Below are positions 12,831 through 18,019 of a stretch of 64,000 nucleotides of DNA, one piece after another. Origin of the DNA: Escherichia phage JES2013. Numbering within the stretch: position 1 is the stretch's first letter; each line of letters begins with the position of its first letter. The notes beneath the pieces were generated by a model. That model saw nothing but the letters and a program-made list of their open reading frames with translations. It had not been told where the DNA came from and ran no database searches. Both the position numbers and the translations under genes were made by a program. Location of the stretch: the sequence record KC690136; one strand, written 5' to 3'.

Positions 12831-12860
12831 TGATAAAATAAAGGGGGCCAGAGCCCCCCT
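12831..12860 (-). terminator. putative rho-independent terminator after tape measure gene
   Basis: Hairpin agggggc caga gccccct followed on the minus strand by a U-rich run. Confidence 0.4.
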
Positions 12861-15207: not shown

Positions 15208-15262
15208 GGTTTCCTCATAATAAAAAAGGGCCAGATCCCAGAAAAGGAATCCGGCCCTTAGA

Positions 15263-15628
15263 TTATCCTCTCCTGCGCTTAGCTTTCGCAGCAGCTGCGG
15301 CAGCCTTCTGCTCCCGCTCCATTTCCCTGTTTTGGACGGTATCTAGGAATTCTTCGATATCAAGATACTCACAGAGCTTCAGGAAATACGCCATATCTGC
15401 AAGATTTAGCGATTCAAAATTTTCCCCTTTGAAATTCTTGAGCACCCTGCACCAAAGAAAGTCGAACCAGTTGAGTGAACTATTCTTAGCTGCCCACTCA
15501 CTGGCCCTCACAACAACCTTGCTTATTCCTGCTCTTCCGGAGTCTGATCCAGGTTGTTCACCTGCTGAATCATACCCATCTGCTGTAACATCTCCAGAAG
15601 GCTTCCTAAACCGTCTTGTGTGAAAAAA
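15263..15628 (-). CDS. tail assembly chaperone -1 frameshift extension (T-like part of a G/GT-type pair)
   Basis: -1 frame is open from the slippery site at 15628-15622 through the ORF ending at 15263; standalone ORF 15263..15511 starts with GTG. Confidence 0.45.
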   Translation of the reverse strand, partial: FFHTRRFRKPSGDVTADGYDSAGEQPGSDSGRAGISKVVVRASEWAAKNSSLNWFDFLWCRVLKNFKGENFESLNLADMAYFLKLCEYLDIEEFLDTVQNREMEREQKAAAAAAKAKRRRG

Positions 15629-15996
15629 CAGCCGTAGTTAACCTCCAGAACCTTACCTGCCAGCTTAATCATCTCCAGCAGATGCCCTGCAAACACAACA
15701 TCAGGGTTAAGCTTATCCACACCATCTACGGTAATATCTTCGAACAAGATTTTAAATAACTCTTCAATAGAGCTATCATCGAGTTCTTGGAACAGGTAAG
15801 CCAGAGCAGTAGGAAGGACCTCTGCCATATTCTGACCACCAGAGATAATAGATCCACCGATAGCACCTAGCGGGACAGCCACAATCTTACCGATTTTAGG
15901 CATGTTTTTCATTGCTTTCATCGGTCCCCAGTGGGTGATCACAAAGTTGTGCCCTGCTAAATCAATCTCTGTTGTAGGTCTAAAGTTTATAGCCAT
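15523..15996 (-). CDS. tail assembly chaperone (G-like)
   Basis: 157-aa acidic ORF between putative tail tube gene and tape measure gene; contains slippery heptamer. Confidence 0.55.
   Translation of the reverse strand: MAINFRPTTEIDLAGHNFVITHWGPMKAMKNMPKIGKIVAVPLGAIGGSIISGGQNMAEVLPTALAYLFQELDDSSIEELFKILFEDITVDGVDKLNPDVVFAGHLLEMIKLAGKVLEVNYGCFFTQDGLGSLLEMLQQMGMIQQVNNLDQTPEEQE
15622..15628 (-). promoter_or_regulatory. candidate -1 programmed ribosomal frameshift slippery heptamer U_UUU_UUC
   Basis: Minus-strand TGT TTT TTC in the zero frame of ORF 15523..15996 (encoding CFF); -1 frame has no stop until 15263. Confidence 0.5.
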
Positions 15997-16642: not shown

Positions 16643-18019
16643 TTATTCAGTCATTGCAACAGCATTGGTAGATTTAGAACCAACTTTGTCCAGAAGGACG
16701 TTGATCCGGATACGAACGAAGTGCAGGGCGTTGTTATACACCAGTTCTACTTTCACACCTTCCAGAACACGAGCAGCCAACTGATTGGTTGGAATCTCTG
16801 CACGTTTAGGAACTGTGATGATCGGGTCGTAGAACACATTGTTGTCTTCGTCAAAACCTGTCAGGATCGCGCCATTCTTAATGCCAGTATTGATCGGGTT
16901 GTTCATCAGAACAGACTTGATAACCGGAAGATCATCATCAGACATCTTCATGCTTAAACCCATATTAGAGCGACGATGCATGTACCCAAACATGGATTCT
17001 TCAGATCTGAACTTGATCCAGTGTGCAAAACGAATAGCGTCTGCATACTGACCTGAAGCACACTTGCCTTCCCAGAAAGCGCCAACACCGTTAATCATTC
17101 TGTAGAAGTTAACGTGGTTTTCCCAAATAGCCATACGCTGAGTTAAAGTCAGAGATGGTGCAATCACACCTGACATCTGTTTTAAGTGCAAGCTGTCGCC
17201 GTAAGACGGATCGTTGGATGCCATAGCACCTATGATACCACCCTCCGGGAAGTCCTTATCTGCACGAGGATCGTACATGCCGACACTGTCATATTGTGCA
17301 GCTTTCAGTTTGGTGGCGATGTTATTATCTTTACCAGTCACATCTTCTGCAGTAGAGTAGACATGCAGCTTGTAGTTAGCCTGAGCCCACTTAGCACATG
17401 CTTCAATGTCGGTGTGGTCTTCATGGCACAGGAAGTACCAATTGTCACGCTCAGCATTGATCTTATCAACTACTGTAGAAGGTTTTTCAGCATTGGCGAT
17501 ATTTTTGATTGTATAGTTACCAGTATGGTAACCAACAGTACAGTCACCAGTGATGGTGAGAACACCTTCAGAAGCCTCTACAGTGATATCGTTCAAGCTA
17601 TCATCTGCTTCAATTTTAGTCTTCATTGACTCTGCAATCTGAGTTGCACCTGTTCCACCAGAGATAGGTACTATCAAAGAAGTATTGTAGCTACCTTTTG
17701 CAATAGTCATTACGACATCGGTATCGGCTGCGGCAGCAATACCTTTAAAATCTACAGTGGTCTTTTCTTTGGCCTGTCTGCCGATCATAACGTATTGTGG
17801 AGGGAATACACCACCAAAAGCTTTTGCTGCAAACTCATACGCTGCAGAGCCTTGTGCGAAACCATCTTCCACCATCTGATCCAGCTCTGCATATACGCGA
17901 GCTCGCTCAGTAAAGTTGTTGTGGATAGCGATGAACAGGGGAGTTTCGAAACCTACAGTGTCAATAGGCTGGGTTCCGAGGTTAACTGTAACATCTACCA
18001 CTTTATCTAAATATGGCAT
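16643..18019 (-). CDS. putative tail sheath protein (or major tail protein)
   Basis: 458-aa ORF preceding a small tube-like ORF, chaperones and tape measure; assignment by gene order only. Confidence 0.4.
   Translation of the reverse strand: MPYLDKVVDVTVNLGTQPIDTVGFETPLFIAIHNNFTERARVYAELDQMVEDGFAQGSAAYEFAAKAFGGVFPPQYVMIGRQAKEKTTVDFKGIAAAADTDVVMTIAKGSYNTSLIVPISGGTGATQIAESMKTKIEADDSLNDITVEASEGVLTITGDCTVGYHTGNYTIKNIANAEKPSTVVDKINAERDNWYFLCHEDHTDIEACAKWAQANYKLHVYSTAEDVTGKDNNIATKLKAAQYDSVGMYDPRADKDFPEGGIIGAMASNDPSYGDSLHLKQMSGVIAPSLTLTQRMAIWENHVNFYRMINGVGAFWEGKCASGQYADAIRFAHWIKFRSEESMFGYMHRRSNMGLSMKMSDDDLPVIKSVLMNNPINTGIKNGAILTGFDEDNNVFYDPIITVPKRAEIPTNQLAARVLEGVKVELVYNNALHFVRIRINVLLDKVGSKSTNAVAMTE

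Follow-up and report, generated by a model that had tools for sequence, protein, structure and literature searches.

Frameshifting in phage tail assembly chaperone genes is a classical phenomenon, known from G/GT of lambda (Xu et al. 2004) and from E/E+E′ of P2. The case described here, which is so far unannotated in rV5-like phages, is the tail assembly chaperone gene in a stretch of 64,000 nucleotides (nt) from Escherichia phage JES2013 (sequence record KC690136; the whole stretch is called the window below), where two open reading frames (ORFs) are very probably joined by −1 slippage on the heptamer T_TTT_TTC. The lambda proteins gpG/gpGT were described by Levin et al. (1993) and by Xu, Hendrix and Duda (2004, 2013, 2014), and their frameshift is summarised in PMC5009743. 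As in lambda, a pair of overlapping ORFs separates the major tail/tube gene from the tape measure gene at the JES2013 locus. The lambda heptamer is G_GGA_AAG, and the G/GT frameshift reportedly needs no strong downstream RNA structure. In contrast, the heptamer of the window reads U_UUU_UUC in the mRNA, the protein belongs to the Pfam family PF21822 and showed no detectable sequence similarity to its lambda counterpart, the tail is contractile, and the binding partners would correspond to those of lambda by analogy. A contractile tail is also found in P2, whose gpE/gpE+E′ pair (Christie et al. 2002) is given in PMC5009743 as frameshifting with an efficiency 2- to 3-fold above that of lambda. 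The locus further shares with P2 a −1 frameshift, here predicted, in a chaperone gene flanked by the tube and tape measure genes, and a T-rich heptamer, a likeness of arrangement. The P2 heptamer, T_TTT_TTG, differs from that of the window in its last base.

A homologous gene with a deposited joined coding sequence (CDS) was found in the Felix O1-like phage Moogle, the record of which contains a product of 212 amino acids (aa) joined at the same T_TTT_TTC. The Moogle protein was, like those of the other Ounavirinae, ~20-26% identical to the fusion predicted for the window and was assigned the same fold by Foldseek; its heptamer stands at the same ...N-F/Y-G-x-F-F motif, with a GGAGG 13 nt upstream, and the gene order is the same. 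Moogle, a member of the Ounavirinae, differs in having a short form of only 133 aa due to a shorter zero-frame tail, in lacking the Gly/Ser-rich linker and, judging from the related TP1 and Panisse loci, in lacking a terminator before the tape measure gene. A sequence search of the predicted fusion against solved structures gave no match at E ≤ 1.

A paper of December 2025 describes an invariant GTTTTT as the site of a conserved −1 frameshift in chaperone genes of Vandenendeviridae (Pakpunavirus Adele) and of Andersonviridae, and the virion modules of these families as related to those of Vequintavirinae (PMC12846349, available part). According to the same part of that paper, the downstream 'hypothetical protein' is the C-terminal part of the long form, the poly-T at the 3′ end of the short form is invariant and every genome has an open −1 frame, as at the JES2013 locus, where the site ctGTTTTTTC includes GTTTTT. 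The available text differs from the present analysis in treating Vandenendeviridae and Andersonviridae and not rV5-like phages; both cases are bioinformatic. Apart from the Adele paper, no statement on frameshifting in rV5 or in Vequintavirinae was found in the literature searched.

The minus strand of the window reads GGC TGT TTT TTC ACA within the chaperone gene (Table 1). The TGT codon at 15630-15628 lies in the frame of the ATG at 15996 ((15996-15630)/3 = 122), and the heptamer covers codons 124-125 (Phe-Phe) together with the wobble T of Cys123. The in-frame T_TTT_TTC had been proposed in a previous sequence-only reading of the window, all coordinates of which proved correct. In the −1 frame, a TAA at 15640-15638 is followed by open sequence from 15637 to the stop codon TAA at 15265-15263, the overlap of the two frames being 15637-15523. 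Translation gave an extension of 119 codons and the stop, in line with the ~120 codons claimed, and a predicted fusion of 125 zero-frame and 119 −1-frame codons, i.e. 244 aa, with a calculated mass of 27.1 kDa where ~27 kDa had been expected. This fusion would span the slip junction ...VNYGCFFHTR, with the junction peptide VLEVNYGCFFHTR. In-frame X_XXY_YYZ heptamers are common, 57 being present in 74 ORFs of a crude gene set of the 64-kb window, and by itself such a heptamer means little. The combination of a heptamer with a long −1 frame, on the other hand, is unique in the 64 kb, since the heptamer of the chaperone gene was the only one of the 57 to open a long −1 extension (119 aa, compared with 37 aa for the next best), which reaches 260 nt beyond the zero-frame stop. 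The sequence U_UU.U_UU.C falls within the efficient H_HH.U_UU.Y class in Escherichia coli, gives >0.1% shifting in this host without any stimulator and is used by insertion sequence (IS) elements (Sharma et al. 2014; PMC4066793).

Conservation of the site was inspected in 16 relatives, comprising 13 diverged loci and three Ounavirinae loci added later (Felixounavirus TP1, Kolesnikvirus Panisse and Mooglevirus Moogle). The former derived from Vequintavirinae (Avunavirus, Seunavirus, Henunavirus, Mydovirus, Certrevirus and the genus-unassigned phage A5-4), from Stephanstirmvirinae (Phapecoctavirus and Justusliebigvirus) and from one unclassified Klebsiella phage. Across 10 genera and three phages without genus, and down to ~20% protein identity, each of the 16 relatives carried an identical T_TTT_TTC in the same phase, always located at the shared ...N-Y/F-G-x-F-F motif. 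The residue preceding Phe-Phe varied (Cys TGT, Pro CCT or Ser AGT) with its third base always T; the Phe-Phe codons were always TTT TTC and the T-run was exactly six in all cases. The −1 frame was likewise open in 16 of 16 relatives from just 5′ of the heptamer to just before the tape measure gene, with predicted fusions of 212-252 aa. A tblastn search with the predicted fusion matched 489 phage records, 352 of which covered at least 80% of the query, and each full-length match listed consisted of two pieces in different frames. When the zero-frame overlap was recoded synonymously, the −1 frame stayed open in 0.7-22% of trials, depending on the lineage; the lineages are non-independent, and the multiplied values are not a probability. 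The direction of these trials is clear, indicating that the open −1 frame is probably under selection.

The −1-frame extension is composed of an Arg-Phe-Arg motif, a linker of variable length rich in Gly, Ser, Asp and Pro, and a helical C-terminal 'T-like' domain of ~80 aa. Invariant residues in the 12 aligned extensions were R4, F5, R6, A40, L50, W52, L81, K82, E85 and Y86, and the helical region showed conserved Trp, Leu-Lys and Glu-Tyr-Leu positions. The Arg-Phe-Arg motif lies directly 3′ of the slip site, where the window also has the stretch CGGTTTAGG, and 5′ of any annotated start; it was present in 12 of 12 extensions, and Phe130 was invariant in 13 fusions, Ounavirinae (Felix O1-like) included. 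In the window, an Arg is kept by means of a double change from CGC to AGG, which alters the zero-frame Phe-Ala to Leu-Gly. The conserved −1-frame residues upstream of the GTG (Arg-Phe-Arg, followed by ISKVV and its equivalents) are partly located in what would otherwise be intergenic DNA. Selection at the protein level is shown for the part of the −1 frame that precedes any start codon. A single-sequence AlphaFold2 model of the extension was of low confidence (predicted local distance difference test, pLDDT, 53) and was not used for fold searching; in this model, residues 1-35 were disordered and the first helix, comprising residues 28-46, spanned the annotated GTG (residue 38).

The zero-frame protein matched PF21822 (Phage_TAC_15; E = 3.3e-23, 83 bits with a cutoff of 22, residues 15-129) and phrog_3840 (E = 6.5e-69), and all 73 homologues obtained in a search of 5.8 billion clusters carried PF21822. 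The AlphaFold2 model of this short form, calculated from an alignment of 25 sequences, was confident for residues 1-123, and confidence dropped exactly at the Phe-Phe site. As the modelled chaperone core ends at Phe-Phe, a slip would exchange one C-terminal tail for another. The zero-frame tail 3′ of the heptamer was also conserved and closed at a stop in all lineages.

In all likelihood, two tRNA-Phe slip back in tandem by one base on U_UUU_UUC, which leads to a minor form of 244 aa beside the major form of 157 aa, similar to gpG/gpGT of lambda. The fusion of the two chaperone ORFs, already suggested by the sequence-only reading, is supported by the conservation of the site, the non-conserved start of the downstream ORF, the coding character of the −1 frame and the recoding trials. 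The majority of ribosomes would translate 15996-15523 in the zero frame and yield the 157-aa chaperone, while a minority would slip with tRNA-Phe in the P site (UUU) and in the A site (UUC), both re-pairing one base 5′, on UUU and UUU. Translation would then restart at C15622 in the −1 frame and end at the TAA at 15265-15263. The resulting long form would consist of the chaperone core 1-125, the Arg-Phe-Arg with the flexible Gly/Ser-rich linker and the ~80-aa helical domain. If the analogy with lambda holds, the tape measure protein, presumably the client of the chaperones, would be coated by the N-terminal part common to both forms. Tail polymerisation would be initiated by the scarce long form, whose −1-frame domain would recruit its presumed partner, the tail tube protein; the virion would be expected to contain neither form. 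From the site and its conservation we infer actual ribosomal shifting at U_UUU_UUC, the efficiency of which would probably be a few per cent because no downstream structure was found.

Several observations weigh against this reading. A downstream stimulatory RNA structure was found neither in folds of 62 and 92 nt of the window nor in folds of 65 nt of seven relatives, and the stem-loop or pseudoknot that had been suggested within ~10 nt 3′ of 15622 was not recovered, the folds being no better than those of shuffled sequences and none being shared. The 62 nt 3′ of the heptamer gave −9.5 kcal/mol (z = +0.6 compared with shuffled sequences); the 92-nt fold gave −24.1 kcal/mol (z = −1.65), with 11 of 200 shuffles as stable and a stem beginning only 20 nt downstream; and the seven relatives showed z values of −0.01 to +1.65 and no hairpin in common. 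Lack of downstream structure is, however, normal for phage chaperone frameshifts. The Shine-Dalgarno-like GGAGG upstream of the heptamer was observed with identical spacing in five relatives (Av-05, the Phapecoctavirus relatives, Felixounavirus TP1 and Moogle), whereas the Seunavirus and Mydovirus relatives have a degraded version and the Certrevirus relatives and Panisse (Kolesnikvirus) have none. The conservation of the T-run is partly due to the conserved Phe-Phe dipeptide itself, and a weak initiation signal, AAGG-N5-GTG, is present in the window. No experimental evidence for the fusion protein in the rV5-like group was found in the literature, and the words frameshift, chaperone and tape measure were absent from the rV5 genomics and proteomics paper. 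Finally, slippage of the ribosome and slippage of RNA polymerase are inseparable by sequence, the protein being identical either way.

Two further searches for stimulatory elements gave candidates that were rejected. A fold of the whole region (161 nt) merely paired the heptamer with downstream bases, which is meaningless with a ribosome on the site, and an Rfam scan gave only a sub-threshold chance match to GcvB (E = 0.11). The upstream Shine-Dalgarno sequence was likewise rejected as a universal stimulator, as it was not conserved in the Certrevirus, Seunavirus, Mydovirus and Kolesnikvirus relatives. In dnaX, a spacing of 13 nt falls in the range that stimulates −1 shifting. The upstream GGAGG, which also codes for a conserved Leu-Glu, is therefore discussed here as a possible lineage-specific enhancer of frameshifting.

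Among the alternatives, it is very improbable that the 82-aa ORF is an independent gene, translated from the GTG via the AAGG, and that the heptamer merely reflects conserved Phe-Phe codons. The ORF does begin with GTG at 15511, as the sequence-only reading had stated. The additional claim that there was no good independent start held only in part: the AAGG with a 5-nt spacer precedes this GTG and was marked as a ribosome-binding site by annotators, while the start is not conserved. The quality of the start is a matter of judgement, and its non-conservation is the stronger argument. Curated records also show two separate CDSs, and phrog_10409 (function unknown) covers the last 82 aa of the extension, i.e. 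exactly the 82-aa ORF. In the aligned relatives, however, the GTG column was occupied by a non-start codon in 11 of 11 cases (CTG, CTC, CAA, GAA, GAG or AAA), and five of them (Henunavirus, Mydovirus and three Certrevirus) lacked any −1-frame start codon (ATG, GTG or TTG) 5′ of the domain core. The starts annotated in relatives were scattered over alignment columns 57-79, within the conserved domain, or the ORF was not called; with starts missing, those chosen by annotators thus cut into conserved residues or the ORF was left out. A non-conserved site in combination with a separate start had been named beforehand as a sign against frameshifting, and the opposite was found, with the site kept in 16 of 16 relatives and the GTG in none of the 11. 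Two genes are also difficult to reconcile with the conserved −1-frame residues upstream of the GTG and with a −1 frame that is open through the whole overlap in every lineage, contrary to the expectation from synonymous recoding. The 82-aa ORF is read as the 3′ part of the predicted frameshift product and not as an independent gene. The probability that the arrangement arose by chance, with heptamer and open frame meeting fortuitously, or that one long gene was split by a homopolymer sequencing error, is next to negligible. The 57 in-frame heptamers of the window would allow for a chance event, and homopolymer runs are prone to error, as is illustrated by a T6/T7 difference in Escherichia phage CL1, but the T6 run and the two-frame arrangement occur in hundreds of independently sequenced genomes, and the zero-frame tail 3′ of the site is conserved, with its stop, in all lineages.

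The CL1 record (OK040806; L020, 1230-1236) has T7 in place of the T6 found elsewhere, and its 213-aa ORF is annotated as 'tape measure chaperone'. Of the 37 full-length Felix O1-like matches in the identity-ranked list (301 records matched), CL1 alone matched its own 213-aa protein in a single frame; one other single-piece match, GE_vB_BS with 64% identity, appeared among the Felix O1-like matches listed. Apart from CL1 and one further match, the full-length Felix O1-like matches in the list were in two pieces, which again argues against an indel. As a natural single-ORF ('Rosetta stone') form, CL1 was rejected as weak evidence, being one record among 301; its T7 is probably a homopolymer sequencing error, or else a slippage variant. 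The same record bears on transcriptional slippage, in which RNA polymerase would add one U in the T6 run and a minority of mRNAs would carry the long form as a plain ORF. In favour of this, the site is a homopolymer with a constant length of six T across all lineages, a stimulatory structure for the ribosome was not found, and the CL1 sequence indicates that a version with one additional nucleotide is readable as a single ORF and gives the same protein, unless its T7 is an error. Efficient slippage of E. coli RNA polymerase, however, usually needs runs of ~8-9 or more A or T, for which six T are short, and the synonymous change of TTC to TTT, which would be favourable in giving seven T, is used by no lineage. 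Furthermore, the run is always in the X_XXY_YYZ phase and its wobble T is kept across Cys, Pro and Ser, which fits tandem re-pairing, although this T also lengthens the run. Transcriptional slippage is therefore considered quite improbable, and tandem slippage of tRNA-Phe on the ribosome is retained as the preferred explanation.

It is rather doubtful, but conceivable, that the PF21822 family keeps one U_UUU_UUC without RNA structure in at least five virus groups, the level of frameshifting being set by the protein-coding context. The groups concerned would be Vequintavirinae, Stephanstirmvirinae, Ounavirinae/Andersonviridae and possibly Vandenendeviridae. The context would be formed by the upstream GGAGG, where present, and by the invariant CGG-UUU-CG downstream, encoding Arg-Phe-Arg, either of which might act via the mRNA or the nascent peptide. 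If true, this would be an unusually old and minimal frameshift signal and would provide a clean natural series for how Shine-Dalgarno-like elements tune −1 slippage.

The 5.3-kb stretch around the site matched Escherichia coli O157 typing phage 4, an rV5-like Vequintavirus, with 100% identity, and more than 100 rV5-like phages of the genus Vequintavirus with ~98%. The same query was also matched by 18 records named 'Campylobacter phage' (C7, A112b, A135 and others, MG0656xx; host C. jejuni), seven of which were among the matches listed, with ~98% identity over the full 5.3 kb and without annotation. Host and name of these records look doubtful, e.g. as a result of contamination or mislabelling. 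On the minus strand, the chaperone gene is preceded by the sheath and tube genes, in this order, and followed by the 82-aa ORF and then the tape measure gene (Table 1). The tube gene is located directly upstream of the chaperone gene, and its homologue is labelled 'tail tube protein' in the records of relatives. The position between tail tube and tape measure genes, from which the sequence-only reading had argued, was confirmed by the matches of these two neighbours to PF11681 and phrog_280 and to PF20155 and phrog_5255, respectively.

Table 1. Coordinates of the slippery site, the predicted chaperone forms and neighbouring features in the window
Feature	Position	Strand	Basis or record
Slippery heptamer T_TTT_TTC (mRNA U_UUU_UUC), X_XXY_YYZ in the zero frame	15622..15628	minus	Sequence read, phase by script
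Zero-frame tail assembly chaperone gene (short form, TAC-N), 157 aa, 17.2 kDa	15523..15996	minus	
Predicted −1-frame extension, 119 codons and TAA; with codons 1-125 the long form, TAC-NC	15263..15622	minus	Translations
82-aa GTG ORF, usual label 'hypothetical protein'	15263..15511	minus	Separate CDS in the Mangalyan and Murica records
Shine-Dalgarno-like GGAGG, 13 nt 5′ of the heptamer, within coding sequence	15642..15646	minus	Sequence
Intrinsic-terminator-like hairpin and T6, 3′ of the −1 ORF stop and 5′ of the tape measure ATG (15207)	15220..15259	minus	
Tail sheath gene	16643-18019	minus	phrog_205
Tail tube gene, 157 aa	16159..16632	minus	PF11681 KPP10_Orf10 (DUF3277), E = 7e-9; phrog_280
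Tape measure gene, 778 aa	12871..15207	minus	PF20155 TMP_3, E = 1.5e-18; phrog_5255, E = 0

A hairpin with a U-run had been noted at 15208-15262, between the chaperone and tape measure genes. It is real, with a stem at 15259-15226 of 14 pairs (8 GC) and a 6-nt loop, followed by TTTTTT, and the intergenic stretch containing it gave −26.4 kcal/mol in RNAfold. Equivalent hairpins with T-runs were observed in 9 of 9 other Vequintavirinae loci analysed, the stems differing in sequence with the pairing kept (GGGCCGGATTCC..., GCCAGGTTCC..., GGGCTGGAGTC...), and the homologous site is annotated as 'terminator' in the record of phage Murica. No hairpin before the tape measure gene was present in the Stephanstirmvirinae loci, with intergenic regions of 12-20 nt, or in the Ounavirinae loci, where the genes overlap or are 3 nt apart. 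The hairpin may attenuate transcription of the tape measure gene relative to the chaperones.

Further elements of this kind were observed in the surrounding sequence. The region between the tube and chaperone genes is 162 nt long in the window, compared with 71-81 nt in the other Vequintavirinae loci, and contains a terminator-like hairpin at 16142-16119 (minus strand; 10 bp and a T-run). A near-consensus sigma-70 promoter is located at 16068-16040 (minus strand), just upstream of the chaperone ATG, with TTGACA-17-TAAAAT, an extended −10 TG and 11 of 12 matches. Together with the hairpin at 15259-15226, these elements make the chaperone pair look like a transcription unit of its own between terminators, and the tape measure gene would then be reached only by read-through. 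Directly after the stop codon of the tape measure gene, another terminator-like hairpin was found at 12841-12860 (minus strand), consisting of AGGGGGGCTCTGGCCCCCTT and a T-rich tail.

A joined CDS for the chaperone was present in none of the ~20 rV5-like and related records inspected. Exact look-up of seven predicted fusions (window/Vequintavirus, Av-05, EspYZU08, CR3, ZCKP1, PD06 and TP1) in a collection of ~15 billion proteins gave no entry, and no long form occurred among the 73 homologues from the search of 5.8 billion clusters, all of which were 149-159 aa in length. The long form is missing from the records of rV5-like and related phages that were inspected, and its 3′ part appears as a 'hypothetical protein' with arbitrary starts or is unannotated. 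A corrected annotation for Vequintavirinae and Stephanstirmvirinae would replace the chaperone and the 'hypothetical protein' by one frameshifted chaperone gene, and joining the ORFs would remove the spurious family phrog_10409 and give the correct product. Phages for the therapy and typing of E. coli O157 are among those concerned. Knowledge of frameshifting or of tail assembly itself is unchanged by this case. The recently reported conserved poly-T frameshift of chaperone genes would be extended to two more subfamilies, which supports a common ancestry of these myovirus tail modules.

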